This document shows positions 23,110-43,806 of a stretch of 60,060 nt of DNA, in pieces. The translations under genes and the position numbers were made by a program. How positions within the stretch are numbered: position 1 is the first letter of the stretch; the number at the start of each line of letters is the position of its first letter. The notes below the pieces were generated by a model. That model ran no database searches. It saw only the letters and a list, made by a program, of their open reading frames with translations, and was not told the DNA's origin. Source of the DNA: Candidatus Bathyarchaeia archaeon (GTDB lineage Archaea > Thermoproteota > Bathyarchaeia > Bathyarchaeales > Bathycorpusculaceae); contig JBEKHJ010000001.1 of the NCBI GenBank assembly GCA_050012335.1, forward strand, positions 1 to 60,060, given 5' to 3'.

Positions 23110-23793
23110 TTATGGAGTTTTTCCAATTTGATTATGTATAAGTTCGTCCAAATGCTGCTGTACAAATACAAAAGGCGCTTCCGCGCTTACCGTTGGTACT
23201 TCCAGATAATGGCTGATTATTTGATACTCGTTTCTCTTTCTGCGCAAGTATCCTAATCCTAACACATCGTTTTTTCTTCTCTGCACAGTCTTTTCGTTGA
23301 CGTCAATGTTCACCAAAAGCAGCGAACGAGGCATTAATCTGAACATTAACTGCCCCACCAGACTCTTGTGGAGTTCACGGTCATTGGTATCAACCATTAA
23401 GTCAACCACAATATCTGGGATAAAACGATCGCACACGACGGTGAACCCTCGCCAAAGCAGTGGTTTAACCAGCAAATTCACGAAGATCAGGGCATCTAAG
23501 AACTGAACCCACGGCCAAATTCCAGAAATCGCCTTGTTCTCATAGTATTTGTGTTCGGAAACGATAAGTCCACTCTTCGTTTGATGAGTTGTTGTAAACC
23601 CCAACATGCGGCTAGCTATCATGAACGGATACGCAAAAAAATAGGCGGTGCCAAACCAAACGTATTTGCACTTGATTCCAGATTTATGCAGATTATCGAT
23701 CAGTTCTCTAGCGTGAGTTGTTTTCCCACTGCCATCTATTCCAATTAGGCAAATCATCTTTTTTCCAATTGGAGATTCCAGTAGCTGCCTCAT
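23110..23793 (-). CDS. Thymidylate-kinase-like P-loop kinase
   Basis: GIDGSGKTT Walker A; VVCDRF. Confidence 0.85.
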   Translation of the reverse strand: MRQLLESPIGKKMICLIGIDGSGKTTHARELIDNLHKSGIKCKYVWFGTAYFFAYPFMIASRMLGFTTTHQTKSGLIVSEHKYYENKAISGIWPWVQFLDALIFVNLLVKPLLWRGFTVVCDRFIPDIVVDLMVDTNDRELHKSLVGQLMFRLMPRSLLLVNIDVNEKTVQRRKNDVLGLGYLRRKRNEYQIISHYLEVPTVSAEAPFVFVQQHLDELIHNQIGKTP

Positions 23794-27467: not shown

Positions 27468-28688
27468 TCACGAGACTCTTCGAGTGTTTTCGATTTTCTC
27501 CCATTTATACTTCGGGCCGGAAAGAAGCAGTGATAACAGACTGAATAGGAGAATCAACTCCATCGAAATCAAATCTATAATGGACACAATCATATGAAAA
27601 CTTGAATTGCTCTTCGCGTTCTTCAGTGTGATATCTGTAGCAGGGGAATTAATTTTGAGAGAGGCGAAAACGACAAAACCTGTCAATACCAGCAAGACTA
27701 ATGGCAGGAAGACTGAAAAGAGATTGAAATAGAAAAACACTATCAGCAAATAGCTTGCTAAACAAACCGCAGTCAAAACAGGCGAAATTATGTTCATAAA
27801 GAACTCGAATGGCATTATTACTGAAGAAAATTTTCCATATTCTCTTTTGAAAAGCAGATTGCTGCATCTTAGAAGAGTCTGCTGGTTGCCTTGCCCTCGC
27901 CTAATTTTGTGTTTCATTCGTGTAGAAAATGTTGATGGGGAATATTCAAAGAAGAGTATGCTTGGGTCATAAACGGCGCGGAATCCCTTCTTTCTTGTCT
28001 GAACCGTCAATTCCATATCATCGCAAATACTGTTACATGGGATTGTTCCAAGCAATTCTCTCCGGTAGGCAGAGAACTCGCTTTCACACATCATCACCGA
28101 ATCCAGATTTGTTTCGCCTAGCCTTAATGTGTTGTAGAAATTTCTGTATCCTTGCTCTAACTTGGTAGATGAGGACTCATCAGGGTTCTGGATTACCTCA
28201 ATCCCTGAAACTGCACCAACCGCTGCGTCGTTGAAGTTAGCGGTTGCCTGCAACAACGCGTCTTTGCTAACCATGACATCAGCATCGGAAAGAACAACGA
28301 TGTCACTACTGCAATTCTTCAGCGCGTAATCCAGCGCCGCCGATTTTCCCAACCTTTCCTCTTGTGTAAGCAAACGGATTCTCGTTTTATTTTCCTTCTG
28401 CATTAAGTCATTGACTATCGATCTGGTATTATCAGTCGAGCCGCTATCAACAACTAGAATTTCAAATTTGTCTCGCGGATAATCCAAGCCCAAAGTGTTG
28501 TCAAGTTTTCTTGGAAGTACTTTCGCTTCATTGAAAGTCGCAATTACCATTGTCAAAGTTGGGAAAAAAGGCTTCTTTTTAATTGTTGAAGGCTTTCTTG
28601 CAAATGTTATGGTAAGTAGAAAATATGATAGTAACCCTACCCAAAGAGCTAGAAAGGTTCCGACAAAGACAAGTTCAACTATATACAT
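27468..28688 (-). CDS. Membrane-bound processive-type GT2 (PgaC/cellulose-synthase-like)
   Basis: IATFNE, VVDSGSTD, GKSAAL, SDAD, CDD, KIRR; N- and C-terminal TM helices. Likely start ATG 28688 (track start 28832). Confidence 0.88.
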   Translation of the reverse strand: MYIVELVFVGTFLALWVGLLSYFLLTITFARKPSTIKKKPFFPTLTMVIATFNEAKVLPRKLDNTLGLDYPRDKFEILVVDSGSTDNTRSIVNDLMQKENKTRIRLLTQEERLGKSAALDYALKNCSSDIVVLSDADVMVSKDALLQATANFNDAAVGAVSGIEVIQNPDESSSTKLEQGYRNFYNTLRLGETNLDSVMMCESEFSAYRRELLGTIPCNSICDDMELTVQTRKKGFRAVYDPSILFFEYSPSTFSTRMKHKIRRGQGNQQTLLRCSNLLFKREYGKFSSVIMPFEFFMNIISPVLTAVCLASYLLIVFFYFNLFSVFLPLVLLVLTGFVVFASLKINSPATDITLKNAKSNSSFHMIVSIIDLISMELILLFSLLSLLLSGPKYKWEKIENTRRVS

Positions 28689-30039
28689 GATTTTCGTCAG
28701 TCCAAGTAGTTCTTTTGTCTGTATTTGAGGCACATATTTTTCTTGGCAACTCAATGAGTATCTCATTGTCGCAAGCAATTGAACTAAGAAGTTCTTCATA
28801 CAACGGAAGCCCTTTACTATCGAGGAGACCATATTCAGGGTGAATGAGCAAAACGCATGCGCCTCCTAATTCCTTGATCACCGTTAGAGTGGTGAGATAG
28901 GCTGCAACAACTTCTTTTGGAGCATAACCTAAGACATAAAGGAATTGGTGATCTTGCATTATCGTGACTGGTAATTCCCTAATTCCTGAGATGGATATTG
29001 GAAAAATGGTGCCTATTCCGTGACAGCGCATTGTCCGCGGATGCTTCGCCTCCCAAGTAGGAACAGAGGTATCATATTGATATCCGCAATCCTTTAGGCT
29101 CGAAAAGATGTCGGGATTGTGTTGAAGTAATGGAGCTCGAAAACCAACTACTTTGTTCTTGACTATTTTCTCAAGAGCGCTCTTGGAGTCTTGAAGTCTA
29201 GCAGTTAAGGTCTTTTCAGAAAGAGAAGAAAGACGGCCATCATGTTTCGTATCATGCGATCCGACCTCGCCGCTATTTGCCAGAGTCGCGATAGTTTCCC
29301 GATCCAGTGAATACTCAGCTGAGGGAATGTACCATGCTGAACTAATATCATATTTCTCTTCAAGCTTCTTTATTTTCACTGATCTGAAAAGCCCAGCTCT
29401 TGTTTCTACATCGTGAGTTATTGCACATACGCATTTCTTGTTTTGCCCCCAGCCTCTCAGCCTGATTTTTTTCTCCGACAGATGTTCAATCTTTCTTAAT
29501 AGTTCAAATCGCAAAGCATCTATAGGCAGGATATTGCTTACGTTAAAATCCTTGGCAATGCTGCCTCGTTTCATGAGAGTATTTCGGAAGCGCCTTGGAA
29601 TGATATTGTAAGGCAAGGGCAAAGTTGTAAACAAAGTGTAACTTAGAGATGCTTTTGCACAAAGTGTTTCTCTCATTATTCTCTTGTATTCGTTTACAAT
29701 GTCAAATGCAAGTATGGCAGAGAGGTCTTCGTTTTCTTTTGGAAAGACTTTGCATTCGTAGGTTAGTTCAGGAATAATGCTCAAAGCTAACTCTGAGGTA
29801 GCACGCACAGAGTAATTCCCATGTTTTTTCGTCACACAACGATTGGTACTTTTTGTCCATCGATCAAAGCTAGCTGAACATGATGGGATTACAATTGTCT
29901 GTGAAAAAGCTGATGGGTTTTTGCCATATACGATTGTGACATCAGATTCATCGTGAGGTGTGTAGCTAATGTCCCAGGGAGACAGCAATTCTTGGATAAT
30001 TTGCTCTTCTCGCTCATCGGCAGCGATACTTACTTTCAT
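28675..30039 (-). CDS. Polysaccharide deacetylase family protein
   Basis: THDVET, EVGSHDTKH, GFRAP, YDTS, LLIHP. Confidence 0.88.
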   Translation of the reverse strand: MKVSIAADEREEQIIQELLSPWDISYTPHDESDVTIVYGKNPSAFSQTIVIPSCSASFDRWTKSTNRCVTKKHGNYSVRATSELALSIIPELTYECKVFPKENEDLSAILAFDIVNEYKRIMRETLCAKASLSYTLFTTLPLPYNIIPRRFRNTLMKRGSIAKDFNVSNILPIDALRFELLRKIEHLSEKKIRLRGWGQNKKCVCAITHDVETRAGLFRSVKIKKLEEKYDISSAWYIPSAEYSLDRETIATLANSGEVGSHDTKHDGRLSSLSEKTLTARLQDSKSALEKIVKNKVVGFRAPLLQHNPDIFSSLKDCGYQYDTSVPTWEAKHPRTMRCHGIGTIFPISISGIRELPVTIMQDHQFLYVLGYAPKEVVAAYLTTLTVIKELGGACVLLIHPEYGLLDSKGLPLYEELLSSIACDNEILIELPRKICASNTDKRTTWTDENHVYS

Positions 30040-30244
30040 AGAATTCAGTCTCAGAATATCGGCAAAACAGAATTTACTTTCTTATGCCAAGCTTTAGATA
30101 AGTCAAAGGACCTACTATTCTCCACCAGTCTCTAAGAGATGAAGTTTTGGTGTATCTGGCCTAATGCATGTGCCAATATGTTTTTGAGCGAGATATTAGC
30201 GCGCGTTTCTTATGATTTGTGCCAATCACGCGCGCGGAGGAAAA

Positions 30245-31249
30245 CTAGTGAATAATTTTTGGGCAACGCACGCCATGCGCTCTTGGAGTTACTAGGGATG
30301 CAGCCTTCAGTGCATGGTAAGTTAATATCATGTCCGCACCAGATCTTTTAATCGAGTTCAAAGTTTCCAAAAGCAGTGTGTCAGCATCTATGTGAGCATG
30401 TTCTGCGAGTAGGTTGATCATTGCGTACTCGCCGCTTACTTGATAAGCAGCAATGGGCATCGTGGGGTACTCTTGTTTTACCCGCATAATCAGGTCCAAA
30501 TTTGTTAAAGCAGGTTTAACTATAATTATGTCAGCACCTTCACTGATGTCTAGTTCCACTTTTTGCATAAACATCTTGCCATTTATTATATCAGTCCTAA
30601 ATCTGCTAGAATCGACATTTTGGTGGGCATGAGAAGAGGTCATTGCCTCTTTAAACGGATTAAAAAGACAACTGTCAGTCTTGACGTAGCTCATTATGGC
30701 TACTTCATCAAAACCGGCACTATTCAACGCTTGCCGCATATGCCTGACTTGCCCATCACACATGGCCGCCGGCGCAACAACATCGGCTCCAGCTTCAGCA
30801 TGAACCACAGAAATCTTGCCTAGCATTTCTGCCGTTTTTTCGTTCAACACTTTTCCTTTTTCCGTGTAGACACAGAATTCGTCTTTTGTGTAGTCGCAGA
30901 GGCATACATTAGAAATTAGAACCAGCTCCTCTCCGAACTCGGTTTTTAGCTTCCTGAAGATTTTTGTGTGAAATGCATCTTTCTTTAGCGCTACTGAGGC
31001 ATCAGCATCTTTTGCCTTCACGATACCGAAAACCATAATGGCAGGTATACCGCAGTCGATTGCTTTTCCGCAGGTGTTAACAGCATCGTTTAGAGAAAGA
31101 TATTCCTGACCTTTCATTGAGGGAACTTCAAATTTCCTCCTGTCCTCTCTGACAAATATCGGGTATATTAGGTCGCTTGCAGAAAGTTCAAAAGGTCTTG
31201 CAAGTCGAATCATCTGCTTGGATACTTTAAGTCTGGTCGTCAAATGCAT
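30245..31249 (-). CDS. hemB: Divergent porphobilinogen synthase (ALA dehydratase) homologue
   Basis: DLIYPIFV, Zn cysteines CLC...C, AGADVVAP, IMSYVK, GADIIIVKPA, AYQVSGEYAMI, KRSGADMILTY. Confidence 0.9.
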   Translation of the reverse strand: MHLTTRLKVSKQMIRLARPFELSASDLIYPIFVREDRRKFEVPSMKGQEYLSLNDAVNTCGKAIDCGIPAIMVFGIVKAKDADASVALKKDAFHTKIFRKLKTEFGEELVLISNVCLCDYTKDEFCVYTEKGKVLNEKTAEMLGKISVVHAEAGADVVAPAAMCDGQVRHMRQALNSAGFDEVAIMSYVKTDSCLFNPFKEAMTSSHAHQNVDSSRFRTDIINGKMFMQKVELDISEGADIIIVKPALTNLDLIMRVKQEYPTMPIAAYQVSGEYAMINLLAEHAHIDADTLLLETLNSIKRSGADMILTYHALKAASLVTPRAHGVRCPKIIH

Positions 31250-31405
31250 TTAACAGGTCTCCCTGCACTTTGAGTTCAAAGCGCGTGCTGTTGAACCCAT
31301 TATTGAGGCACTACAGTTAGCGAGTTTATTCTGAATTCGCCCTTATATTTCTATATGTAATACGGTTCAATACAGTTTTTGTACTAAGATCAAGGAAATT
31401 CTATG

Positions 31406-31426
31406 AACAGATTTGCTAAATCTGTT
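31406..31426. promoter_or_regulatory. Perfect 9-3-9 inverted repeat, candidate operator upstream of hemB
   Basis: aacagattt-gct-aaatctgtt, about 50 bp beyond a TATA-like tract (31343-31356). Confidence 0.35.
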
Positions 31427-31814
31427 ACAATAGATTAGGTTAGCGCCTACCGAGACCCACATATTTCTCCTCAGCTTCCAAGCAAAAAACATTTTACAGG
31501 CACCCTGAAAACACCTTAGTGCAATCGAGACGAGATAGGGCATTGCAAATGCGGTATTGTTTACTATTTTTAGTTCATTTCCAAGGAGTTACCCATCAGG
31601 ACACCGAGAAACTTGTTGGCGGTCTTTTCCTAAGAAAAAGCTTTGGACCTTTCCAATTGTGCGTTGTATATGATTTCAATATCTAAGTTTCGAAATAGTC
31701 TTTGAGACAAGCATGGGGAACACAAGCATTTAGGTTAGAAGAAAACATCATCGGCAATTCTTTGAGACATGCACTAGACCGCTGCCAACTCAGATGCGGT
31801 AAGAATATTGTGCA

Positions 31815-33149
31815 CTATGGATCGAAAAATCTCTTCAAAATAGAAGGAGATTCCTGAAAAACCAGAGTAAGAAAGTCTTGGATCCATCGTGAACTAGCAG
31901 ATTTGGACCCATAAAAGATGGGGGTCAGCATATTTGCGTTTAAACCGATTTCGTCCTCCATGATTGCAACCTCGCAGAGTCGGGTGTGTGGATAAATTCG
32001 CATTCTTGCCGTTGAAAAATATCCAAGCTTTCGCCTACACCTGAAGACCGCTTTTGCCCAAAACTCGGCAAGAGCTACTAAGTTTCTAAGATTGCCTCGT
32101 GGGAGATCATAGAAAAAAGTATACCCAACATTAGCGCCTTTAACCTGACACGCCATATCAATTGTGCGTTCAATGTCTGCAATCCTAATTTGCTTCCCCA
32201 AAAAGGTCAGAACCGGATCAGACGCGCCATCGGAATGAAACTCAAATCTCGTGCACCCTGCATCCACAGCCTCACGCATTAACCTGATGTTCAAAAGGTC
32301 CTCCCGAAAATATGCATGCCATTGCACATCCAAATTTCTTTTTCGAATCTCTACACAAATCTCGCTACTATGTCTGGGCGGACAATTGAAAATAGGATCA
32401 ACAAACCAAAAAGATTTCACGTTATAATTATTCACAAGCTCCTCTATCTCATCAACAACCTTACTAGCAGAACGCAGCTGCAGAATATAGTTACCCAAAA
32501 AAGGATCTGTGCAATAAACGCATCCAAAAGCGCATCCACGCTTCGACTGAACATTCAAAGAATAGGGTATCTTTTTGTATTCTGACATATCAAAAAGTTC
32601 CCTTGCTGGAGAAGGCAGAAGGTCAAAAACCGCAGGTTCCTTCACCCCCGTGAACGCAACCCCATCTTCACCCTGAACGAGCAGATTCCTAACCTTCTCA
32701 GGATGGCTAATATTTCTTAGGAGAGTGGCAAAAGTGGTCTCACCATCCGAAACCACCCCAAAATCAATCTCCCGGTTCTCACTCATAATCTCTCTGGAAA
32801 AAACCGAGAAACCAGGACCACCAACAACTATCTTACATGAAGGCGTTGTATTCCGTATTAGCCTCAACATCTTTCTAAACTGCGAGTAGAAACTCGGGCT
32901 TTTGCCGAAGCGGGTATTATTCAGGAAATCCATATTCCTAAAGGAAATGCCGACAACCTCAGGTTGCTCATCCTGAAGACGCTTTGATAACACGCCTAAA
33001 GGATTGCGAATGACATTGGCGTCAAAAACACTCAACTCGTGACCTTCTAGCATCGAAGCAATATACGCCACGCCCAACGGAAACACGCGCGCGTGCGAAT
33101 GAAAGACTGAGTCGTCACCATAGTATTGAGAGCACAGCAAAACCTTCAA
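31815..33149 (-). CDS. Cobalamin-binding radical SAM protein
   Basis: N-terminal PLGVAYIAS...VVGISFRNMD...GGPG B12-binding domain; QSKRGCAFGCVYC motif. Confidence 0.92.
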   Translation of the reverse strand: MKVLLCSQYYGDDSVFHSHARVFPLGVAYIASMLEGHELSVFDANVIRNPLGVLSKRLQDEQPEVVGISFRNMDFLNNTRFGKSPSFYSQFRKMLRLIRNTTPSCKIVVGGPGFSVFSREIMSENREIDFGVVSDGETTFATLLRNISHPEKVRNLLVQGEDGVAFTGVKEPAVFDLLPSPARELFDMSEYKKIPYSLNVQSKRGCAFGCVYCTDPFLGNYILQLRSASKVVDEIEELVNNYNVKSFWFVDPIFNCPPRHSSEICVEIRKRNLDVQWHAYFREDLLNIRLMREAVDAGCTRFEFHSDGASDPVLTFLGKQIRIADIERTIDMACQVKGANVGYTFFYDLPRGNLRNLVALAEFWAKAVFRCRRKLGYFSTARMRIYPHTRLCEVAIMEDEIGLNANMLTPIFYGSKSASSRWIQDFLTLVFQESPSILKRFFDP

Positions 33150-33415
33150 GCTTTCTCCTCATCTCCCAAGCAGAACCAGTTTACGGACACTCTAAAAATA
33201 TCATATATCTTTTTTCAGCGCGCAAAGGTTGCGGCAATTGTGAGCAGTTTCAGCCAACTATGATGTTTTCTGGCGCGCTTTCAGGAAATTTCTTACGCAT
33301 ACTAGATTTACTGTTAGGTCTGGACAACGTTTACCTCAAAGCAAATGTTCGTTTTATTCAAACCTGACGTTTCAAATAAGATGGGGCACTGCATTTGGGG
33401 GGTTGTTGATTCCTT

Positions 33416-34630
33416 CTAGTCCATTTCTGTAGAGTTACCTGAGAGGGTTTTGAGGAGCCTATCGGTGGTTTTTTCCCAAGAAAAAGCTTTGGACCTTTCC
33501 AACGCTTTTTCGCCCATTCTTCGTCTAAGAGAAGAATCTAATGTCAACCTATTCACTGCTGAAGCCCATTCGACCACTGAAGGCTCAAGCAAGAAACCAG
33601 CATCACCAAGAACCCCAGGTACACCGCCTCGATTGCATGCCACCACTGGCTTACCGCAAGCCATGGCCTCAAGAACCACCAGCCCAAAAGTGTCGATAGT
33701 ACTGGGAAACAAGAAAATGGAACATTCCTGCATTAACCTCACAACTTCAGAGTCTGATGGATACAAGACTATCTCAAACCTGTCAGAGATTTCCATTTCC
33801 TCTGCTAGACTAGCTAACTTAGACTTGTACCACATGTGCTGCGGCTCAATGTCTCCTGCAATGGTTAGAGAGCAAGATTCAGGTGCCCTCTTCATTGCCA
33901 TCACTGCGAGCTCCAGAGACTTATGAGGGTGAATCCTTCCAAGGTATAACGCAAAATCTCCTGATTTATCCACAGGATAGAACCTATCGTGGTCAATTCC
34001 CAACGGAACGACTGCTGCTTTTTTGTGTCCGATGGTTCCTTGTCTTCGGGCTTGTTCAAGTTGGAATCGGCTGGGCGCAAGGAAAGTGCTCAGTTTTCGG
34101 AAGCTAGCCTGCTTCAGACTTCTAAATGGAAGTGAATCGTAGAGCCCATCTATTAGTCTTCTGCGCAATGTTGCCTCCATAAAAGGAACATTAAAAGGAG
34201 GAGGCATTGGTCGAAGCACGTTGAGATAAACCATTCCGATGGGTTCATAGAAATTGTAGAAGTATGGAAGCAGCCAATGTTCTCCGTGATATTGATACAG
34301 GGCAACGTCGCATTGGGCATCTGCTATGCTTCTGCTGATTTCAAGTGCGTATTCCGTTTGTCGCCACAAATAAGCAAGTTCTGTCGGAATTTTCAATAAA
34401 TCGCTTTCTCTTCGCGATAATAAAGGGCTTTCTCCGCTTATTGCTTTCTTCCCCGGGACTAAATGAATTGGCATTCCGAGAAATTCCTGAAAACATTTTC
34501 TTGCATCTAGCTTCGTTGTGTAGATTTCAACCTCATGCCCTAGACTCTGCAATTGACGCGTTACCTCATACGTGAAGCGTCTCGAGCCTGTTCTCTGTGA
34601 GAGGTCTTCGTCCACAAAGGCGATTTTCAA
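33416..34630 (-). CDS. Glycosyltransferase family 4
   Basis: PLGID, YLGRIHPHK, FPSTIDTFGLVVLEAMACGKPVV. Confidence 0.93.
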   Translation of the reverse strand: MKIAFVDEDLSQRTGSRRFTYEVTRQLQSLGHEVEIYTTKLDARKCFQEFLGMPIHLVPGKKAISGESPLLSRRESDLLKIPTELAYLWRQTEYALEISRSIADAQCDVALYQYHGEHWLLPYFYNFYEPIGMVYLNVLRPMPPPFNVPFMEATLRRRLIDGLYDSLPFRSLKQASFRKLSTFLAPSRFQLEQARRQGTIGHKKAAVVPLGIDHDRFYPVDKSGDFALYLGRIHPHKSLELAVMAMKRAPESCSLTIAGDIEPQHMWYKSKLASLAEEMEISDRFEIVLYPSDSEVVRLMQECSIFLFPSTIDTFGLVVLEAMACGKPVVACNRGGVPGVLGDAGFLLEPSVVEWASAVNRLTLDSSLRRRMGEKALERSKAFSWEKTTDRLLKTLSGNSTEMD

Positions 34631-34747
34631 GACAATTCCCCGGTCAATTTCGCAAAATTCTCGACAGATACAATGTATGCGCTAGCAAAAAAGAAACAAT
34701 GTGTACTACTTAGGACAATAGAGATTGGAGGCTCGGCAGACACGATT

Positions 34748-35569
34748 CTAAGAATTTTGGCCGGAAGCCGCCTGAAATAGTGCAAAAGCCTTTCTCAACT
34801 TGAAGATATGGAGAAGGCCTCTTCTAATCCTGATTTTGCCAGTTAACCAGGACTTAACCAAATCGCGCACGCTGGCTCCGCTTCCAATAATTAAGGAAGA
34901 CAGAGGAATACTTCCCTCGATAATTACATCAGAGTTCTCCGCTTTTCCCTCTTCCAAATAAACCTTTTCAGGTTCAATGTACACTGAAAATTCTGGAACC
35001 CCTTTTAACCTAAACGAAATACTCATTGCAAGCTCTTTGAACTGCTTTCTAATTGCATCATTTGACTTAATTGCTTGGTCTATTTCCTCAAACTTTTCTT
35101 TTAGCTCTTGACAATTGAAAAGTTTTCTGTAAACAGTGGTGTGATTAGGAGCACTTACGTATCCTGCTGCTGGATGATAGAAACGGTTAACTAACTTAGG
35201 GCGACCAACAAAACTATAGCTCACAACAATCCCTCTCTCCTTAAAGGCTCCAGACAAACGAGGAAAACGAATCAGCTCCAAACCTATCCTTTGACCTCTA
35301 TAATTAGGATGAACAGCAATGTCAGCGCCTAAGGCGGCCTTAACATACGTATTGTTTGACAATTTGAGCTCTCTATATAGCCAGTAATTGGATCCAATTA
35401 GCTTTCCGTCTTTTTCAGCTATTACCACGAGTGAATTGGCAAAACTGGGATTCATTCGATACTTCCAAAACCACAAATTGCTATCCCTGAAACTGGGAAA
35501 AGTAATCTTCAGCAATTCTTTCAGCCCGACTTCATCTTCGTCACGGAACAGTCTGCACGAAAAATTCAA
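34748..35569 (-). CDS. GNAT acyltransferase with C-terminal SCP2-like domain
   Basis: DIAVHPNYRGQRIG CoA-binding motif; C-terminal SDVIIEG...WLTGKIRIR (SCP2-like). Confidence 0.82.
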   Translation of the reverse strand: MNFSCRLFRDEDEVGLKELLKITFPSFRDSNLWFWKYRMNPSFANSLVVIAEKDGKLIGSNYWLYRELKLSNNTYVKAALGADIAVHPNYRGQRIGLELIRFPRLSGAFKERGIVVSYSFVGRPKLVNRFYHPAAGYVSAPNHTTVYRKLFNCQELKEKFEEIDQAIKSNDAIRKQFKELAMSISFRLKGVPEFSVYIEPEKVYLEEGKAENSDVIIEGSIPLSSLIIGSGASVRDLVKSWLTGKIRIRRGLLHIFKLRKAFALFQAASGQNS

Positions 35570-35599
35570 GCATTTCCCCTCATTCAGCGTGTCGCCATT

Positions 35600-36424
35600 C
35601 TACCCTATGTCTGCACGAGGCATGAACCAAGGTGTTCTAATCTGCAACAGATTGAACAATTTTTTGACTTTGGATATCTTCCAAAATGGGTGAAAGCGCA
35701 ATTTTGAAGCCATTACATCTTTCAAAAGACTCTCTGTTCCGAAAATGAGAGCAACAACGGTTGACATTTCAGCCTCTATTGTAGTTCTTTGAACTGGGAC
35801 AGGCTTTTCTAGAATAGTAACTTGGTTCTTTTCAAGTTTTACCCCGAAGCTGGGGAGACACCAAGGCGGACAGTTCTTCAGATTAAACCAGAACACTTCA
35901 TTTATGTCCAAGATTTGGTTTTTGGCTTGGAGAACTTCACGAATCAATTGAGGCAAATCGAGGATGCTTAGGAACATCGCTTCAGAAGGTGACTCTGCAA
36001 AATCCATGTCCTGGCATACTTCACGCACCACCGGGTCCTTGTCGTACGCATTAAAAACCACAGAACTGCTACCAACGCTTTTGGCATAATTCTCCGCCCA
36101 ACTGAGAAGTTTTGAAACAACAACCTTTGCTATATTAGACGAATCGTAACAGAGTTCCCAAATGTTACCAGATTTTCCAACCACAACATAGCCTACAATT
36201 TTATTCTGTTTTTCCAGGATCAGGATGCCTTTTTCCTCGACATCTGGACGTTTCAGACAGCACCAACGCCAGTATTCAACGGTCCTTGGAACAAAACCAG
36301 CCAAGTTAGCGTTTTGGGCATTGAAAAGAAGCACAAGTGAAGTCTCGTCGCCTTGCTCATACGTCCGAGAACTATATTCGCCCGTATTGTCAGCCAATTT
36401 CTTCGCTCCTTGTTTCAATCTCAT
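35600..36424 (-). CDS. GNAT-fold protein with C-terminal SCP2-like domain (Eis-like second half)
   Basis: RTYEQGDE, VPRTVEYWRW, IVGYVVV, LLSWAENYA; WFMPRADIG terminus. Likely start ATG 36424. Confidence 0.72.
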   Translation of the reverse strand: MRLKQGAKKLADNTGEYSSRTYEQGDETSLVLLFNAQNANLAGFVPRTVEYWRWCCLKRPDVEEKGILILEKQNKIVGYVVVGKSGNIWELCYDSSNIAKVVVSKLLSWAENYAKSVGSSSVVFNAYDKDPVVREVCQDMDFAESPSEAMFLSILDLPQLIREVLQAKNQILDINEVFWFNLKNCPPWCLPSFGVKLEKNQVTILEKPVPVQRTTIEAEMSTVVALIFGTESLLKDVMASKLRFHPFWKISKVKKLFNLLQIRTPWFMPRADIG

Positions 36425-36464
36425 ATTGAAATACACTGCAAAAAAAAGACCCACGAAACGCACA

Positions 36465-37766
36465 CTAGAATACTGTTCGCTCAGTCTTCGTCTGGAATAA
36501 TCGTTCAGCGGCTTCCAGCAATCCGTTGTCGCTGCTTAAAGCCGCCGCTCTCAGTTGCTCTATAGGAATTTGCGCAACTCTTTCAATTAGCTCCCTCGAG
36601 AAACGTTCTATGATGGCAAGCTTCTCTTTGTCCGATATGCCCATTTTACGTATTGCTCTTGTTAGTTCCTTCAATCTTATCTCTTCGTATCTCTTGAAGA
36701 TTTCATTGATTAATGGTTGCGCAACAAGCTTTGAGAGTTCTATTTCAAAGCGGCTCAGTTCCTCAGAAACTATGACTTTCGCCTTCTCAGCCTCAATCGT
36801 TCTATTTCGCAAGGTCTGGTCAACTATCTGTTTCAAATCATCAATTGTTTTCAGGCAAATTCCATCTAGAAGACCCACTTCTTCTTCAATTGCTCTAGGC
36901 TGCGAAATGTCAATCATCAACGCCTGTTTCGATCTTGGTGGATCAGTCATAAAAGAAATCAGCTCCTGTTCCGTGAAAAGTGGCGCCTTAACTGAGATTG
37001 CAGTAATCACCAAATCCGCATGGCAAATCGCAGCAAGAACGTCACTGAAAGGAATCGCAAACCCAGACACCTTTTCTGCAAGAACCTGACTCTTTTTGAA
37101 AGTTCTGTTGGTGATTGTCATTGCAGGAACCCCATAACTCTTCAATGCTTCGGCCGCAAGTGTTCCTGCTTCTCCTGCCCCTATGATTAGAACTTTCTTT
37201 GATTTCAAATCGCCTAGTTTATTTGATGCAAGGTCGACTGCTGCCGAACTTATCGAAACTGAACCCTCATTAATCTTTGTTCTTGTTCTGACTAGCTTGC
37301 CGGTGTTTAGTGCTTTCATAAATACTTTATCAAGCAGTTGCCCCGTAGACCCGTGCTTCCTTGCAGCCAAGAAAGCCTTACGCACCTGACCGATAATTTG
37401 ATCTTCGCCTAATACCATCGACTCCAGTCCAGAAGTCAAATAGAAAAGATGCTCCATCGCCTTTTTTTCGTAATAAAGTTGTGCCAACTTTGCGATAATA
37501 TCGGAACTCACACCTGTGATAGTGCTCCATTTTTTGAGTATTTGCTTTATTGCCTCATCGCGATCTGGCGTATTTAGCTTGCAGTATATCTCCACGCGAT
37601 GACAGGTCTGGATAAGAACACATTCTTGCGCAATTTTCTCCGAACAAAGAGCCTGCACGAACGCACCTTTGTCCTGGAGAGTGAGAGATTCAAGGACCGG
37701 TACGCTTGCGTGCTTGTAAGAAACGGAAAGACAAACCAGCATGAAAAGCCCAACTTTAATGTACAT
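36465..37766 (-). CDS. hemA: Glutamyl-tRNA reductase
   Basis: QTCHRVEIY catalytic Cys, GLESMVLGEDQIIGQV, SISSAAV, IGAGEAG, NRT, IDISQPRAIE. Confidence 0.95.
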   Translation of the reverse strand: MYIKVGLFMLVCLSVSYKHASVPVLESLTLQDKGAFVQALCSEKIAQECVLIQTCHRVEIYCKLNTPDRDEAIKQILKKWSTITGVSSDIIAKLAQLYYEKKAMEHLFYLTSGLESMVLGEDQIIGQVRKAFLAARKHGSTGQLLDKVFMKALNTGKLVRTRTKINEGSVSISSAAVDLASNKLGDLKSKKVLIIGAGEAGTLAAEALKSYGVPAMTITNRTFKKSQVLAEKVSGFAIPFSDVLAAICHADLVITAISVKAPLFTEQELISFMTDPPRSKQALMIDISQPRAIEEEVGLLDGICLKTIDDLKQIVDQTLRNRTIEAEKAKVIVSEELSRFEIELSKLVAQPLINEIFKRYEEIRLKELTRAIRKMGISDKEKLAIIERFSRELIERVAQIPIEQLRAAALSSDNGLLEAAERLFQTKTERTVF

Positions 37767-37783
37767 TTAACTGGAGTTGCAAT

Positions 37784-39067
37784 TTACTTTTCAACGATTA
37801 CTTTAAGGTATTTACCTTCCAATTGACCTACAGGAATAAAGACCACTTCATTGAAATTTATTCCTACACGATTCTTAATATCGTCGGTAATTTCCTTCCT
37901 AAGCGAAATCTCCGCGGTCTGGGACAATGCGCCATTAGTTTCTACTCTAAGCAAAGTCTCGTGTTTGGGCGTACGTTTATCAACGATTATTTGACATCTG
38001 CCAGTAAGTTCATGGAACTTCCCGAGCAAGAATTCAACGTGACTTGGAAAAACAGTTACGCCTCGGATCTTTGTCATGTAATCTTCTCGATCGATGTCAG
38101 CGCCGATTTTCAGATCGCACATGCCGCAAGAACATTCCCCAAACCCAAAATAGGTTGTTATGTCACGGGACAAATACCTTATCAACGGAAAGGCCTCCCT
38201 TTGAAGACTAGTGACCACCAGTTCGCCTCTTTCTCCAACGTCAAGAGGCTCATGAGTTTCCGGATCCACGATCTCAACTAAGTAATAGTTGCCCCAAATG
38301 TGATGCATATTCTGGTCCTCTCTGCAGTTGACAGAGAAACCTGGAAACTCTGTCGAGCCATAGTCGCTGATGACCTTTTCGTATCCACCCTCCCTTTTGA
38401 GGATTTCAACTTGACTTGCAGTAGGTTTCTCTGCCACACAAAAAGCAGTTTTCAAGTTATAATTCCTAAGGTTTTCTCCAAGAGCTTTAGCCACTTCCAA
38501 TATTCTAAAATGGTAGCTAGTAGCTGCATAAAGAATGGTAGTCCCGAATTGTTTGATTATGAGAATTTGACGCTCTGAGTCAGCTGGACCAACGGGAATT
38601 ACGAAAATCCCGGCCCGTTCGGCGCCCCAATGCATTGACCAACCGCCTTGCCACAAGCCATAGGCAGAAGTAATCTGAACTATATCCTTTTTTGTTGCGC
38701 CATGGTAGAAAAGCCTTTGCGCAGATGCATCTGCAATCATATTTATGTCTTTACGAGTGTGCGCAATTTTCAGCGGATGCCCAGTGGTTCCGCTTGACAG
38801 CCGCACAGTGGCAATTTTAGAGCAAGGCACAGCTAAGATTTCGTGGAAGTTTTGTTCCAATTCTTCTCTCGTGATAAAAGGAATTTTGGTTACGTCTTGC
38901 AGACTCTTGATGTCAGAGGGGTGTATTCCTGCTTTCTCGAATTTTAACCGGTAAAAACTACTGTTCGCGTAGACCCTATTCAATTGCTTCTGCAATAACC
39001 TTAGCTGCAGGCTTTTCAGTTCATCTATTGAAGAGTAAGTCTTGCAATCCCAGAATGGTTTATTCAT
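37784..39067 (-). CDS. Phenylacetate-CoA-ligase-family (ANL) acyl-adenylating enzyme
   Basis: LSSGTTGHP, YGSTE, GELVVTSL...PLIRYLSRD, KIRGVTVFPS. Confidence 0.9.
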   Translation of the reverse strand: MNKPFWDCKTYSSIDELKSLQLRLLQKQLNRVYANSSFYRLKFEKAGIHPSDIKSLQDVTKIPFITREELEQNFHEILAVPCSKIATVRLSSGTTGHPLKIAHTRKDINMIADASAQRLFYHGATKKDIVQITSAYGLWQGGWSMHWGAERAGIFVIPVGPADSERQILIIKQFGTTILYAATSYHFRILEVAKALGENLRNYNLKTAFCVAEKPTASQVEILKREGGYEKVISDYGSTEFPGFSVNCREDQNMHHIWGNYYLVEIVDPETHEPLDVGERGELVVTSLQREAFPLIRYLSRDITTYFGFGECSCGMCDLKIGADIDREDYMTKIRGVTVFPSHVEFLLGKFHELTGRCQIIVDKRTPKHETLLRVETNGALSQTAEISLRKEITDDIKNRVGINFNEVVFIPVGQLEGKYLKVIVEK

Positions 39068-39108
39068 AATTTTTTCTTCCTCAATTATTATTAACTGTCA
39101 TCTCAGCA

Positions 39109-40386
39109 TCATGCCAGTTGACGAAGGGCATCTGAAAAACATTCAACGGTTTTCTCCAAATCCTCAGGTGAATGCGCCTTTGACAGGAAACAGGTTTCAA
39201 ACTGCGACGGAGGTATAAACACGCCCTTTCTCAAGAGCTCAGCATGAAACGCCATGAACTTGTGATTATCCGACGCCTTGGTACTAGCATAGTCAAACAC
39301 AGGTTTATCGGTGAAGAACAACTGAAACATAGACGCAACATGGTTAATCTGTAGGTTCAAACCAAGTGCGGAAACCGTCTCACCTAACGGCTTCACAATC
39401 GCCTCGCACTTCCGCTCCATCTCAACATAGAATGCCTTACCGCTCTCTTTCAACAATCCAAGTGTCGCCAAACCAGCAGCAACACTCAACGGATTCCCAC
39501 TATAAGTCCCGGCCTGATATACCTTGCCAGATGGCGAAATTAGCTTCATAATATCCTCTTTACCTACGTACGCAGCCATCGGCAAACCGCCACCCAAAAT
39601 CTTCCCCAGGGCGGTCATGTCAGGCGTCACACCAAAATACTCCTGTGCTCCTCCAAGAGCAAGCCTAAAACCAGTAATAACCTCGTCAAAAATCAACACA
39701 ACACCGTAAACTTCAGTTAGCTCCCTCAGCGCCTGCAAGAAACCCGGCTTCGGCAAAACCACGCCGATGTTCCCGATCACGGGTTCAACAATCACAGCGG
39801 CCAAGTCATCCTTGTTCTCTTTCACTGCTTTTTCGAATTTTTCCAAATCATTGAACGGAACCACAACAGTGTTCCGCGTCGTCCCCTCCGGAATCCCAAG
39901 AGAATCAGGCACACCAAAAGTGGACGCGCCAGACCCTGCCTTCACCAAAACACCATCATGAGCACCATGATAGCAACCCTCAAACTTGATGAACTTATTC
40001 TTCCCAGTATAACCCCTCGCCGCCCTGATCGAAGCCATCGTTGCTTCTCCACCAGTGCTGACCAAACGAACCATTTCGGCTGAAGGAACAATCTCAGACA
40101 CCAACTCAGCAAAATCAACTTCCTGTTCTATCGGCGTACCATATAACGCGCCAAACTCAAGCTGCGCCTTGACAGCCTCAACTACCCTCGGATGAGAATG
40201 ACCCAAAATAAGCGGTCCAAAACCCAAGCAGTAATCAATGTATTCATTTCCGTCGACATCAGTAATACGCGAACCCTTACCTTGTTTGGTGAAGAAAGGA
40301 TTAGGCTCAAATGCTCTCACCGGACTGTTCACTCCACCAGGAATAAGCTTTTTAGCTTTCTCAAACAAATCGGCAGATCGTGTCAA
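39109..40386 (-). CDS. hemL: Glutamate-1-semialdehyde 2,1-aminomutase
   Basis: IPGGVNSPVRAF, FEGCYHG, FDEVITGFR, PLP lysine GKILGGGLP, YQAGTYSGNP, PSQFE. Confidence 0.97.
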   Translation of the reverse strand: MTRSADLFEKAKKLIPGGVNSPVRAFEPNPFFTKQGKGSRITDVDGNEYIDYCLGFGPLILGHSHPRVVEAVKAQLEFGALYGTPIEQEVDFAELVSEIVPSAEMVRLVSTGGEATMASIRAARGYTGKNKFIKFEGCYHGAHDGVLVKAGSGASTFGVPDSLGIPEGTTRNTVVVPFNDLEKFEKAVKENKDDLAAVIVEPVIGNIGVVLPKPGFLQALRELTEVYGVVLIFDEVITGFRLALGGAQEYFGVTPDMTALGKILGGGLPMAAYVGKEDIMKLISPSGKVYQAGTYSGNPLSVAAGLATLGLLKESGKAFYVEMERKCEAIVKPLGETVSALGLNLQINHVASMFQLFFTDKPVFDYASTKASDNHKFMAFHAELLRKGVFIPPSQFETCFLSKAHSPEDLEKTVECFSDALRQLA

Positions 40387-40502: not shown

Positions 40503-41225
40503 CTATTGTTTAGTTCCAAGTTTTAAATAGAAGAGAGGTCTGACTATTCTCCACCAATCTCTGAAAGGAGAAATTTGCGAATACCCGCCTTTGTGTCTGT
40601 GCGAGTATGTTTTGGAAACTGGGGCCTCTATTGTTTTGTAGCCCAAGGTGAGTGCTTTGTAGTGAATATAATACTCCAACTCATAATCGTCGAGCCATCT
40701 TTGCCATATATTTATTCGAGGGTCTTCAAAAATACTCAGTCTATACGCCCTGAATCCGTTGGTGACGTCTGTGCACCTAACTTTCGTCAATAGAGTCCAG
40801 AGAAACGGATAAAATCGACTGAATATTCCCCGAAGAAGCGGATTCTTTACACATCTGCCTCCTGCAAGAAAACGCGATCCCTGAACATAGTCATAGTCTT
40901 CTTTTATTATAGGTTCCAGAAGACGCGGTATTTCACGCGGATCGTCTTTGTTGTTTCCAGCCAATACAACCACAATGCTGAAATCTTTGTCCAGTGCATA
41001 TTGTATGCCCTGTCTTATAGCATATCCAATGCCCTTTCTCTCTTCATTTCTAATCAAGTGAACTTCAATTGGAACTGCCGCACTTAGTATTTTTCCCATG
41101 TCTTTTTTGCTTGCAGCATCCCAGATAACACAAATTTCGTCCACAACTTTTTCTCTAAACTTACTAAGAACCTCAAATATACTATCATTATCACGATAGA
41201 CAGGAATTATGGCAAGGGTTTTCAA
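40503..41225 (-). CDS. GT2, polyprenol-phosphate glycosyltransferase-like
   Basis: GIGYAIRQG, YVQGSRF, TDVTNGFRAY. Confidence 0.88.
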   Translation of the reverse strand: MKTLAIIPVYRDNDSIFEVLSKFREKVVDEICVIWDAASKKDMGKILSAAVPIEVHLIRNEERKGIGYAIRQGIQYALDKDFSIVVVLAGNNKDDPREIPRLLEPIIKEDYDYVQGSRFLAGGRCVKNPLLRGIFSRFYPFLWTLLTKVRCTDVTNGFRAYRLSIFEDPRINIWQRWLDDYELEYYIHYKALTLGYKTIEAPVSKTYSHRHKGGYSQISPFRDWWRIVRPLFYLKLGTKQ

Positions 41226-41234
41226 TTTGTAATT

Positions 41235-41699
41235 TCACTCTTTCTTGTTCCTGTAACCTGTTATCCGTGCCGGATTTCCAACCACGATAGCCCTTTCAGG
41301 CACATCTCTTGTCACCACCGAACCCGCGCCTACCAGCGCCTCCTTCCCAACGGTCACACCAGGCAAAACAACGCAACCAGCACCTAGAGAGGCACCAGAT
41401 TTAACCTTGATCTCAAGAAGAACCCAATCGCCTTTAGCTTTTGGATACTTGTCATTAGTAAAAGTAACATTGGGACCCACGAAAACATTGTCTTCAATAG
41501 TCACACCTGAGGGAATAAAAACAAAAGGTCTAATTTTACAATTGTCTCCAACAACAACGCCTTCCTCTATGTAGACAAAGGCGTCGATTTTGCAGTTCTT
41601 GCCAATTTTGCATTTATACAAGTTTACATGGTCGTGAACTACAGTGCCTTCGCCGATTTCGGCGTTAGTAATGAGCGAGTATTGGGGGCTTTGGTTCAT
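41235..41699 (-). CDS. Hexapeptide sugar N-acetyltransferase (WbpD/FdtC-like)
   Basis: GPNVTFTNDKYP, GAGSVVTRDVP..GNPAR. Confidence 0.92.
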   Translation of the reverse strand: MNQSPQYSLITNAEIGEGTVVHDHVNLYKCKIGKNCKIDAFVYIEEGVVVGDNCKIRPFVFIPSGVTIEDNVFVGPNVTFTNDKYPKAKGDWVLLEIKVKSGASLGAGCVVLPGVTVGKEALVGAGSVVTRDVPERAIVVGNPARITGYRNKKE

Positions 41700-42691
41700 T
41701 AGTCTTTAATACCAACCGTGATTCCATTCTCTTGTTCGAGAGATTGCTTGAGACATTGAAGAACTTTGACGGTCCCGGCCCCGATTGGTCCTGGATTCTT
41801 GTGATTATTTTCATCTCTTATGCTTTTGACGAAATGGTTTACTTCATCAAAAATCGTATTATTCACAGGAACTTTGAGGTCAAAACTGTATTCGTTATTA
41901 TCCTCAAATATCTTTATTGTTTGATCTAGACAATCTACTTTTGCGCTTCTCTTGGAACCTATAATATTTAACTCTCTTGCTTTCACTGGATGCAGCCAAC
42001 TTAGATCAACGTTAACCATTAGATTCTCCCCAAAATCCATGTATAAATACGCAACCTCTTCCAAAGAAGGTCTTCTGTAGGAATGCGCAATGCAAGAAAC
42101 TTTGACTGGCCATTTCTGAAGCAAGAATTGGGCAATGTCAACTGGGTGGGGTCCTAAGTCGAATATAATATCGCGGCCAAGAGGGGAAGGGATCCATGTA
42201 GTCCATTGCATCTTGAGATAGTATAAATCTCCAAAATATTTCTGCGCTATTAGTTCTTTCATTTTTCTTATAGCATTGTTAAACCGATAAATATGCCCGA
42301 CTTGCAAACACAAATGCCTTGATTGAGCTTCAGCCACCATTTCCCAAGCATCTTCAGATGTCAGAGCCATTGGCTTCTCAATAAGAACATTTTTTTCAGA
42401 TTCTAGAGATTGCAAACAAAAATGGTGATGCGTCTCATTCGGCGTGCAAATGTGAACTGCATCAACATCTGGCGATTTCAAAACCGCCTCATAATCCGAA
42501 CTCAACATACTCTCTGTCACATGCAAAGACTTCCGGCAGTAATCCAAATTGTCGTCTTTCAAATCGCAAACATACAATAAATTAAAGCTCGGATCTACCT
42601 TGGCAAGGTGAAGATACTCCGTAACAACCTTTCTGCCCCAGTAACCTGCCCCAATAACGGCTAAATTCAATCCTTTCACCTCTCTCGACAA
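41699..42691 (-). CDS. Gfo/Idh/MocA oxidoreductase (WbpB-like)
   Basis: GAGYWG, CTPNETH, IEKPM, DLGPHPVD. Confidence 0.92.
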   Translation of the reverse strand: MSREVKGLNLAVIGAGYWGRKVVTEYLHLAKVDPSFNLLYVCDLKDDNLDYCRKSLHVTESMLSSDYEAVLKSPDVDAVHICTPNETHHHFCLQSLESEKNVLIEKPMALTSEDAWEMVAEAQSRHLCLQVGHIYRFNNAIRKMKELIAQKYFGDLYYLKMQWTTWIPSPLGRDIIFDLGPHPVDIAQFLLQKWPVKVSCIAHSYRRPSLEEVAYLYMDFGENLMVNVDLSWLHPVKARELNIIGSKRSAKVDCLDQTIKIFEDNNEYSFDLKVPVNNTIFDEVNHFVKSIRDENNHKNPGPIGAGTVKVLQCLKQSLEQENGITVGIKD

Positions 42692-43806
42692 TTTGAACGT
42701 ACAAAATCTTTGCCATCGAAAAAATTATGGATGTTTTGACTTATATAAATTATTTCGCTTTCCGTAATATTGGGAAAAATCGGAATAGTAAGACAAGTTT
42801 TGCAAAGCTCTTCAGCATTCGGATAATCTCCTTCAGCATACCCGAACATTTGCCGATAGATTGGTTGAAGATGAATCGGCAAAACATAATGGATTCCACA
42901 ACAAATGCCCTGAGATTCCAGCCAACTCTTAAGTTCATCACGATATTTCGAGCGAACAACGTAAAGATGATAAACAGGCTTAATTTCGACTGACCCCTTT
43001 GGGGGCAAAACCAAATCGCCCACACCCTCAAGAGACTTATCGTATTCTTTGGCAGCCTGTTGTCTGCTGCTATTCCAAGCGTCAAGACGCCTAAGCTGAA
43101 CTCTACCGATTGCAGCATTAACAGAATTCAAGCGAGAGGTAAAACCAACCACATCGTGAACATATTGACTCTTGCGCCCGCAATCTCTAAGCTTCGCAGC
43201 CGCTGCCGCAATTTTCTCATCGTTAGTCGTTATCATCCCGCCGTCCCCCCCCACGGTCATGTTCTTGGACGGGTAAAAGCTGAAACAACCAACCGAGCAT
43301 AGACTTCCAGCTTTTTTCCCGTGGTATGAAGCACCATGAGCTTGACAAGCATCTTCGATGACGACTAAATCATGTTTCTTTGCAAGATCATTAATCGAAT
43401 TCATATCCGAGGGATAACCGTACAGATGCACAGGGATAACGGCCTTTGTCTTAGCGGTGATTGCTTTTTCCAGTTTCAGAGGATCAATGTTATTGGTTTC
43501 TGGGCTTATGTCTGAAAAAAAAGGTACCCCTTGAGCATGAATAATCGCGTTAGCACTTGCAATAAATGAAGCAGGCGAAGTCACCACCGTTTGCCCCGGA
43601 TTAATTCCAGAAGCCAGCATAGCAATTTTCAACGCATCAGTGCCAGAACTAGTTGATACTGCGAAGTCTGTTCCGCAGTACTTCGCAAATTCCTCCTCAA
43701 ACTTATGAACGCTTTCGCCCAAAACAAAGCGCTCGTTTCGAAGAGCGCCTAATGCAGCCTGCTCCATTTCTTCATCGAATACAGGTTTACCTAAAGGTAT
43801 TTTCAT
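42676..43806 (-). CDS. DegT/DnrJ/EryC1/StrS sugar aminotransferase (WbpE-like)
   Basis: SSGTDAL, PVHLYG, IEDACQAHG, FSFYPSKNM. Confidence 0.95.
   Translation of the reverse strand: MKIPLGKPVFDEEMEQAALGALRNERFVLGESVHKFEEEFAKYCGTDFAVSTSSGTDALKIAMLASGINPGQTVVTSPASFIASANAIIHAQGVPFFSDISPETNNIDPLKLEKAITAKTKAVIPVHLYGYPSDMNSINDLAKKHDLVVIEDACQAHGASYHGKKAGSLCSVGCFSFYPSKNMTVGGDGGMITTNDEKIAAAAAKLRDCGRKSQYVHDVVGFTSRLNSVNAAIGRVQLRRLDAWNSSRQQAAKEYDKSLEGVGDLVLPPKGSVEIKPVYHLYVVRSKYRDELKSWLESQGICCGIHYVLPIHLQPIYRQMFGYAEGDYPNAEELCKTCLTIPIFPNITESEIIYISQNIHNFFDGKDFVRSNCRER

Follow-up and report, generated by a model that had tools for sequence, protein, structure and literature searches.

Organisation of the locus

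The 60,060-nucleotide stretch analysed here, which we call the window, comes from a Candidatus Bathyarchaeia archaeon (GenBank assembly GCA_050012335.1, contig JBEKHJ010000001.1) and contains a block of eight open reading frames (ORFs) in which hem genes stand in the midst of glycan genes. The block, entirely on the minus strand, comprises hemL, a PaaK-like ligase, hemA, two paralogous GNAT+SCP2 proteins (GNAT2 and GNAT1), a glycosyltransferase (GT), a B12-binding radical SAM protein and a paralogue of porphobilinogen synthase (PBGS) that we call HemB* (Table 1; coordinates are positions in the window). The genome carrying the window, G000 (2.1 Mb, 91% complete), is split into 264 contigs. A preliminary description of this DNA had listed the eight co-oriented genes in this order and put the gaps around the ligase at about 40 and 17 bp; we find all eight and measure 41 bp between hemL and the ligase and 17 bp between the ligase and hemA. 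Its assignments of HemA, HemL and HemB are borne out by scores above the curated cut-offs, and the glycan genes it saw on both sides are present as GT2 and GT4 genes, deacetylases, a DegT aminotransferase, a Gfo dehydrogenase and an LbH acetyltransferase. A DUF2206 gene also belongs to these flanks, and an STT3/AglB-type gene is present in the genome. Its GNAT/SCP2 pair holds with a qualification: GNAT1 matches a GNAT family directly, while the sequence of GNAT2 itself has no Pfam match, although its orthologues match GNAT and SCP2 and its model has the GNAT+SCP2 fold.

HemA and HemL both belong to the C5 route to 5-aminolevulinate (ALA), since they pass their cut-offs and carry the catalytic motifs: 14/14 cassette HemA copies have TC[HN]RxE, and 13/14 cassette HemL copies have the pyridoxal phosphate lysine motif. 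The last cassette genes are preceded by wide gaps of 266 bp and 565 bp, so that a single transcript for the whole block is not established. An RNA run (word share 0.05) gave 7 short contigs with at least 99% identity over 27-44 kb, and with a control stretch equally sparse this is no evidence of transcription. A scan for sigma-70 promoters and terminators stayed at chance level, with a model unsuited to archaea.

Table 1. Features of the cassette and its immediate flanks.
Feature	Position in window	Strand	Details
hemL, glutamate-1-semialdehyde aminomutase, cassette-specific clade	39109..40386	(-)	TIGR00713 600 bits, cut-off 527
PaaK-like AMP-dependent ligase, core gene	37784..39067	(-)	P-loop and catalytic Lys intact; acid pocket altered, more polar
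hemA, glutamyl-tRNA reductase, cassette-specific clade	36465..37766	(-)	TIGR01035 355 bits, cut-off 210
GNAT2, GNAT+SCP2, Eis-like fold, core gene	35600..36463	(-)	mostly without acyl-CoA motif A
GNAT1, GNAT+SCP2 paralogue of GNAT2, core gene	34748..35569	(-)	Acetyltransf_9; acyl-CoA motif A kept
GT4 glycosyltransferase, accessory; family frequent in these islands	33416..34630	(-)	12/48 locus groups
B12-binding radical SAM, probable optional C-methyltransferase	31815..33149	(-)	BzaD 247 bits, TIGR04072 219, both under cut-off
HemB*, porphobilinogen-synthase paralogue	30245..31249	(-)	NF006762 323 bits, cut-off 297; PF00490 E 2e-96
Decayed copy of GT2 3' end	30077..30187	(-)	source GT2 gene at 40503-41225
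Polysaccharide deacetylase, downstream flank	28675..30039	(-)	PF01522; possible source of free sugar amines
Upstream flank: GT2, LbH acetyltransferase, Gfo sugar dehydrogenase, DegT aminotransferase	40503..43806	(-)	amino-sugar set

Conservation and mobility of the cassette

HemB* is a distinct and recurring protein. A HemB-family match occurs in 107 of 401 genomes of the class, and in 8 of these it is HemB* (64-74% identity), one being an 88-residue piece at a contig end; for canonical HemB copies the identity over the full length is 38-48%. Within the order, 16/401 genomes from five families and 12 genera have HemB*, and the two sets together comprise 17 genomes. Scanning metagenomes with a DNA motif returned 117 loci, of which 19 were not HemB and were dropped; the other 98 encode HemB* at 62-81% identity and form 83 clusters at 95%. 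These loci overlap the genomes (L164/G302, L180/G811 and L201/G979 look identical), and the counts are therefore not additive. A set of 1.84 billion representatives contributes two HemB* sequences, P0001 and the fragment P0004, and three others, P0002, P0003 and P0005, with the same lid signature. The latter three are distant relatives in which the lid arginines are lost and a Gln-to-Arg change is present, and P0002 also lacks one of the three cysteines. A contig scan with generic HemB patterns found 80 canonical loci and no HemB*, which leaves the range outside the class weakly covered. In a quick tree of 59 rows HemB* and these proteins form a long-branch clade with a Shimodaira-Hasegawa-like approximate likelihood ratio (SH-aLRT) support of 98, P0002 and P0005 being long branches. 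The cassette HemA and HemL likewise form clades of their own (15 rows in each; support 100 for HemA and 97 for HemL) and do not group with the copies that these genera have in their cobalamin operons.

The preliminary description had proposed looking for the same gene neighbourhood in other genomes, and it recurs: the ligase and both GNAT genes share the HemB* contig in all 14 genomes with long enough contigs (G000, G302, G202, G217, G395, G356, G811, G997, G979, G841, G996, G981, G750 and G824). G374, G130 and G830 stand outside this set as fragmented or not examined further. The usual order is GNAT2-GNAT1-ligase-hemA-hemL, and in G841 HemB* comes directly next, giving six contiguous genes. 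Strong GNAT2 orthologues were found in 9/401 class genomes, namely the eight with HemB* and G381, in which the island is cut off by the contig end. The B12 radical SAM and GT4 genes had also been counted as part of the system, but they prove to be accessory: the viewed stretches of 10/14 islands include a B12 radical SAM gene, and those of G979, G841, G750 and G824 do not. Where it occurs, the protein has a B12 domain and the motif CxxxCxxC (21/21 rows), and the window copy reaches 247 of the 450 bits required for BzaD.

The surroundings are consistently those of a glycan island. Glycosyltransferase, deacetylase or related glycan genes occur in 38 of 41 dereplicated metagenome loci of at least 4 kb, with a PIG-L deacetylase directly after HemB* in 18 of the 41 and a polysaccharide deacetylase before it in 9. 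Other families recur as well. DUF362 is found in 15/48 and a SPASM radical SAM protein in 14/48 HemB* locus groups, and in 10/48 a family of about 305 residues without a Pfam match adjoins a Gfo dehydrogenase downstream of HemB* (for example L161:10195-11115).

In the window the cassette lies between a GT2 gene and a deacetylase gene that directly adjoin each other in G217, G374 and G813. The short remnant that follows HemB* resembles the 3' end of this GT2 gene (tblastn 59% identity over 37 residues, E 2e-7; 69% of nucleotides over 101 bp). Because the junction is uninterrupted in these three genomes and a decayed GT2 copy is left in the window, the cassette is likely a movable module and the copy likely marks its point of insertion.

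This mobility raises the question whether the cassette has anything to do with glycans. It might make a free small molecule, a glycoside or a lipid modification, or acylate proteins, and merely be located in a variable island. Its probable insertion at the GT2-deacetylase junction and the variation of the flanking glycan genes would suit this view, as would distant modules in G072 and G399 in which GNAT-SCP2 proteins and a ligase accompany an aldehyde oxidoreductase. All 14 viewed islands, however, lie among glycan genes and are usually interleaved with GT, deacetylase and PIG-L genes, and we saw no conserved exporter or scaffold synthase among the clustered neighbours. We regard a product unrelated to glycans as decidedly unlikely. 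In the two distant modules (L275, G072:C20, 2744-12133; L276, G399:C46, 364-5240) the neighbours of the GNAT-SCP2 pair or GNAT2-like gene are a ligase resembling PaaK (25-29% identity), DUF362 and an aldehyde:ferredoxin oxidoreductase, and the module in G072 also adjoins a deacetylase. They may be a sister acyl-donor module with another source of the acid.

Separation from tetrapyrrole synthesis

Genes for the later steps of tetrapyrrole synthesis do not accompany the cassette. In the G000 assembly hemA, hemB and hemL are single copies and hemC, hemD, cobA and cbi genes were not found, so that no second, canonical hem set of the kind that the preliminary description had suggested searching for was found. 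The findings which that description had said would tell against it likewise did not appear: hemC and hemD did not turn up in other parts of the genome, the gene neighbourhood proved to be conserved, and an ordinary PaaK exists separately. Searches of G000 by tblastn with cobA, sirC, cbiD, cbiL and cbiF of a relative gave nothing; a cbiX-like match on contig C58 fell outside a called ORF and was rejected. The genome has only one TP-methylase match, which we take to be Dph5-like. The same holds more widely: hemC was not found in 13 of the 17 HemB* genomes, including G997 (one contig, 97% complete), G811 (7 contigs, 98%) and G302 (100%), and hemC, cobA and hemD were not found in the 98 metagenome loci (651 kb).

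The four genomes that do have hemC amount to a natural experiment. These are G217, G395, G981 and G374, the last having the start of hemC, which stands next to canonical hemL and hemB where a contig ends, and all four keep HemB* in addition to a canonical HemB. The cassette carries hemA and hemL in 11/11 hemC-negative islands in view, while hemL is absent from 3/3 hemC-positive ones. G217, G374 and G395 have a single hemL, that of the canonical set, and a hemL was not found in G981 at all; for hemA, G395 has only a frameshifted copy about 25 kb away. Since hemL is missing from these islands but HemB* is kept beside a canonical HemB, ALA would be a shared input which the canonical operon can supply, and canonical HemB apparently cannot replace HemB*.

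Could the cassette nevertheless be a housekeeping or decaying remnant of tetrapyrrole synthesis, with hemC and hemD lost or outside the assembly and the neighbours unrelated? The incompleteness and fragmentation of G000 allow for it, and the cassette genes do descend from canonical archaeal hem genes. But hemC was not found in near-closed genomes either, the new residues of HemB* show fixation and no drift (12 invariant sites have switched, as described below), and the linkage to ligase and GNAT genes holds across five families. We consider this explanation extremely improbable and largely refuted already. A dedicated role of the cassette outside tetrapyrrole synthesis is, in our judgement, close to certain. 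The preliminary description had gone further and proposed a dedicated ALA supply for glycan modification; a non-tetrapyrrole branch conserved together with ligase and GNAT genes in glycan islands stands, and the pyrrole chemistry, the activation by coenzyme A (CoA) and the amino-sugar acceptor remain predictions. One practical consequence is that annotated hemA, hemL and hemB genes should not be read as a sign of haem or cobalamin synthesis in these genomes.

The active site of HemB*

The residues of HemB* suggest which part of the enzyme has changed. We compared 90 HemB* sequences, many of them partial, with 72 canonical rows, one of which is misaligned, and read the E. coli HemB numbering off the alignment with 1b4e. 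PBGS is described as joining two substrates, bound at a P-site and an A-site, in a Knorr condensation (PMC7725820, PMC7242693, PMC13564367; these and the other papers cited by PMC number are each drawn on in part). The P-side and the catalytic apparatus are intact in HemB*: both Schiff-base lysines are kept (K190 in 85/85 and K245 in 61/61, E. coli K195 and K247), the three cysteines of the metal site are present (C116, C118 and C126, 90/90), and Ser272 and Tyr311 (E. coli S273 and Y312) are invariant where covered.

The A-side is altered throughout. D118 is replaced by Asn in 90/90 sequences (own N114; canonical Asp in 71/72) and S165 by Ala in 87/89 (own A161; canonical Ser in 72/72). Both lid arginines are gone: R205 has become Phe in 76, Tyr in 5 and Lys in 4 (own position 200; canonical Arg in 72/72), and R216 has become Ser in 77 and Pro in 7 (own S214; canonical Arg in 70/72). 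Q220 is Arg in 83/83 (own R218; canonical Gln in 70/72), and the Glu of the allosteric magnesium site, E232, is Lys in 61/61 (own K230). Basic lid residues hold the carboxyl group of the second substrate of PBGS (PMC7729013). In total, HemB* and canonical HemB agree at 67 conserved positions, and 12 invariant sites are switched from one fixed state to another, a pattern that fits selection for a new substrate and not decay. HemB* thus has the profile, lysines and cysteines of PBGS and departs from it in the A-side residues. The Atlas model of HemB* matches an ALAD cluster with a template-modelling (TM) score of 0.96.

It could be argued that HemB* still condenses two ALA molecules, either slowly to porphobilinogen or to a regio-isomer of that product, and that the ligase activates the pyrrolyl-acetate arm. 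HemB* does score above the PBGS cut-off, its 67 shared positions speak for continuity, and a pyrrolyl-acetate would resemble the aryl-acetates of PaaK. Yet HemB* persists in 4/4 genomes that own a canonical HemB, where the redundant hemL is missing, and the Asp and Arg are replaced in all copies read. Mild mutation at these places cripples PBGS: in the Corynebacterium enzyme D128E leaves 5% and R231K a trace of activity (PMC12997798). From the numbering offsets, D128 and R231 would correspond to E. coli D118 and R216. Retention of the ordinary reaction therefore seems to us very unlikely.

The ligase and the GNAT pair

The ligase is PaaK-like but far below the family cut-off (273 vs 646 bits, TIGR02155). 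It keeps the P-loop, the hinge Arg, the YG.xE motif and the C-terminal Lys, and so has the motifs of adenylate-forming enzymes. The changes lie in the pocket. Where 15 generic PaaK rows have YGYGLFTGG, FGAE and DIYG, all 12 cassette rows have motifs of the type TSAYGLWQGAW, CV[AST]E and xDYG with small variation, and an invariant Asp takes the place of an Ile or Val. An ordinary PaaK with the FTGG motif is encoded separately on contig C67 of G000. A search of 400 other genomes of the phylum, few of them of this class, gave no orthologue of the ligase; generic PaaK proteins there reach at most 352 bits, and the cassette copy itself scores 786 bits. PaaK pockets are mostly non-polar (PMC9516798), and as the pocket motifs of the cassette differ, phenylacetate is an unlikely substrate. 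A literature search for residue-level numbering of the PaaK pocket found none.

GNAT1 and GNAT2 are paralogous (hhalign 99%) and are encoded as separate chains of 265-280 residues. Acyl-CoA motif A is present in 11/12 GNAT1 rows and a looser pattern in only 4/11 GNAT2 rows, which suggests that GNAT1 is likely the catalytic acyltransferase of the pair. GNAT2 probably starts about 22 codons further in. Its model has a predicted local distance difference test (pLDDT) score of 82, and the best Foldseek matches are Eis-type proteins (E 5.5e-8, TM 0.59). VIA aligns it with Eis-type structures over about 256-261 residues with Z 13.8-14.7 and a root-mean-square deviation of 4.1-4.9; if the comparison is confined to the GNAT domain, tandem GNATs, MshD among them, come out slightly above the Eis type. 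Among the Atlas clusters nearest GNAT2 the commonest taxon is Ca. Bathyarchaeota.

A possible pathway

Taken together, the six core genes (hemA, hemL, HemB*, ligase, GNAT1 and GNAT2) may encode a pathway that makes an ALA-derived pyrrole acid and acylates amino sugars with it, a proposal that from the sequences we would put at an even chance. HemA and HemL, assigned by family, would make ALA. HemB* would bind ALA at its intact P-site and, using the Cys3 metal site, carry out a Knorr-type condensation with a different carbonyl partner, which to judge from the residue changes would lack the amine and the acetate arm of ALA. Our best guess for the partner is a small acid of the 2-oxo or 3-oxo type. 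With pyruvate, for example, the product would be a pyrrole-2-carboxylate bearing a propionate arm. We are led to a keto acid because the change of Asp to Asn drops a negative charge at the amine site, that of Arg to Phe fills the acetate pocket, and that of Gln to Arg adds a positive charge. The ligase, whose catalytic motifs are in place, would then form the acyl-CoA, and GNAT1, probably with GNAT2 as its partner, would move the acyl group to an amine that the neighbouring deacetylases have freed on a sugar linked to a nucleotide or lipid. In islands that have it, the B12 radical SAM protein might methylate the ring or the sugar as an optional step.

As suppliers of the partner we considered a UbiD and a LeuA-like protein (both G217) and an AdoHcyase-like protein (L150, G381 and G981), none of which is conserved. 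The UbiD-family decarboxylase gene (L040:7184-8386) stands within the cassette of this one genome (G217), flanked by GNAT1 and the B12 radical SAM gene. The lack of a conserved supplier fits a common metabolite as the partner.

A different order of events is conceivable, in which the ligase acts first on ALA itself and the GNATs place a 5-aminolevulinoyl group on sugar amines or N-acylate ALA; HemB* would then join this tethered or modified ALA to a free ALA molecule or close it into a ring. The ligase stands next to hemA in nearly all islands, its invariant pocket Asp could bind an amine, a tethered A-side substrate would account for the lost lid arginines, and an ALA-CoA ligase is known from the actinomycete C5N triad (PMC4525017). 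The amine-binding pair is changed as well, however (the Asn and Ala replacements in 90/90 and 87/89 sequences), which would be needless for a tethered ALA with a free amine, and the closed barrel site appears ill-suited to a bulky substrate. We judge this order of events unlikely.

Several points weigh against our preferred sequence of pyrrole formation, activation and transfer. No gene supplying the partner is conserved, which makes the A-side substrate a guess, and the adjacency of ligase and hemA fits direct activation of ALA equally well. Unrelated genes gather in glycan islands, and the substrates of GNAT-SCP2 proteins include lysines and small amines. In G000 tRNA-Glu was not found, probably owing to an assembly gap. 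In G130 there are two HemB* copies and the ligase orthologue was not found among its fragmented contigs; G996 has a frameshifted HemB* and a short GNAT1, and G997 a split GNAT1. The hemC-positive genomes belong to two genera, three of them to g6, and thus represent two lineages and not four cases. Finally, the roles given here to D118, S165, R205, R216 and Q220 of E. coli HemB, and to the PaaK residues, rest in part on general background knowledge of these enzymes.

With these points in mind, the broader proposal that HemB* is the first PBGS paralogue turned into a mixed Knorr pyrrole synthase, within a movable archaeal pathway putting a pyrrole-acyl group, sometimes methylated, on surface glycans, is tentative, and its chance seems to us a little short of even. 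If true, it would mean that monopyrroles arise in biology by a further, new route and that glycans carry a new class of modification, one that brings an aromatic, Ehrlich-detectable group into archaeal glycobiology in a lineage abundant in sediment and peat. Should a HemB paralogue have been selected to make something else, it would bring a new enzymatic activity, and one that might be put to use as a biocatalyst for unsymmetrical pyrroles. In the open-access literature, covered as listings and the beginnings of abstracts and excluding subscription papers and supplements, we found no HemB paralogue outside tetrapyrrole synthesis and no locus of this kind. The portions consulted of two reviews treat HemB only as the step joining two ALA on the way to tetrapyrroles (PMC7242693, PMC13564367).

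Comparison with known systems

The closest relatives of the core genes are HemB/ALAD (PF00490) with HemA and HemL. The cassette shares the fold family, both Schiff-base lysines, Cys3, the P-side Ser and Tyr, and an intact HemA and HemL; it differs in the replaced A-side, the Mg Glu changed to Lys, the lack of linkage to hemC, hemD or cobA, and the presence of HemB* as a second copy beside canonical HemB. The C5N unit of moenomycin is attached to a sugar. The actinomycete C5N triad of a cyclising ALA synthase, an ALA-CoA ligase and an amide synthase (moenomycin and manumycin types) resembles the cassette in having a dedicated ALA source, a CoA ligase and an amide-linked ALA unit (PMC4525017). 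The cassette differs in its C5 route, its HemB paralogue and GNAT-SCP2 pair, and its archaeal surface-glycan context, and it is not a member of the triad, the cyclising ALA synthase and amide synthase being absent from the window genes and clustered neighbours. The preliminary description had also drawn on alaremycin as a precedent, which is inexact; AlmA did not complement a hemA mutant (PMC9356726).

Another likeness is to the 5-methylpyrrole-2-carbonyl branch of clorobiocin and coumermycin (CloN6), with its activated pyrrole acid and a cobalamin radical SAM methylase acting on an sp2 carbon (PMC9204698). The cassette has no carrier protein, and its putative methylase, which need not be of the CloN6 type, is optional. 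In the CloN6 branch the pyrrole is made from proline on a carrier protein and transferred to a sugar. The Eis family (PDB 3n7z, 3sxn and 2hv2), whose members acylate amino-sugar amines, shares the GNAT+SCP2 fold. Eis combines two GNAT domains and one SCP2 domain in one chain of about 400 residues, whereas the cassette has two paralogues of one GNAT and one SCP2 domain each, one with the CoA motif, at about 12% identity. PaaK (TIGR02155; PDB 4r1l and 2y27) shares with the cassette ligase the fold, the P-loop, the YG.xE motif and the C-terminal lysine; the cassette ligase differs in falling under the family cut-off, in its pocket motifs and in coexisting with an ordinary PaaK.

Other observations in the window

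Elsewhere in the window, positions 3613-8118 and 8064-10583 (-) encode large surface proteins with Pro-Thr repeats (Kelch/DUF2341 and BNR-type) whose C-terminal halves are apparently identical; they are possible glycosylation targets, or possibly an assembly repeat. At 11990-13180 (+) there are two opposite-strand ORFs, the first without a Pfam match, which are presumably pieces of a transposase. Between GT4 genes at 23110-24917 (-) lie a thymidylate-kinase-like gene and an NTP_transf_5 nucleotidyltransferase gene, an arrangement conserved in G217.

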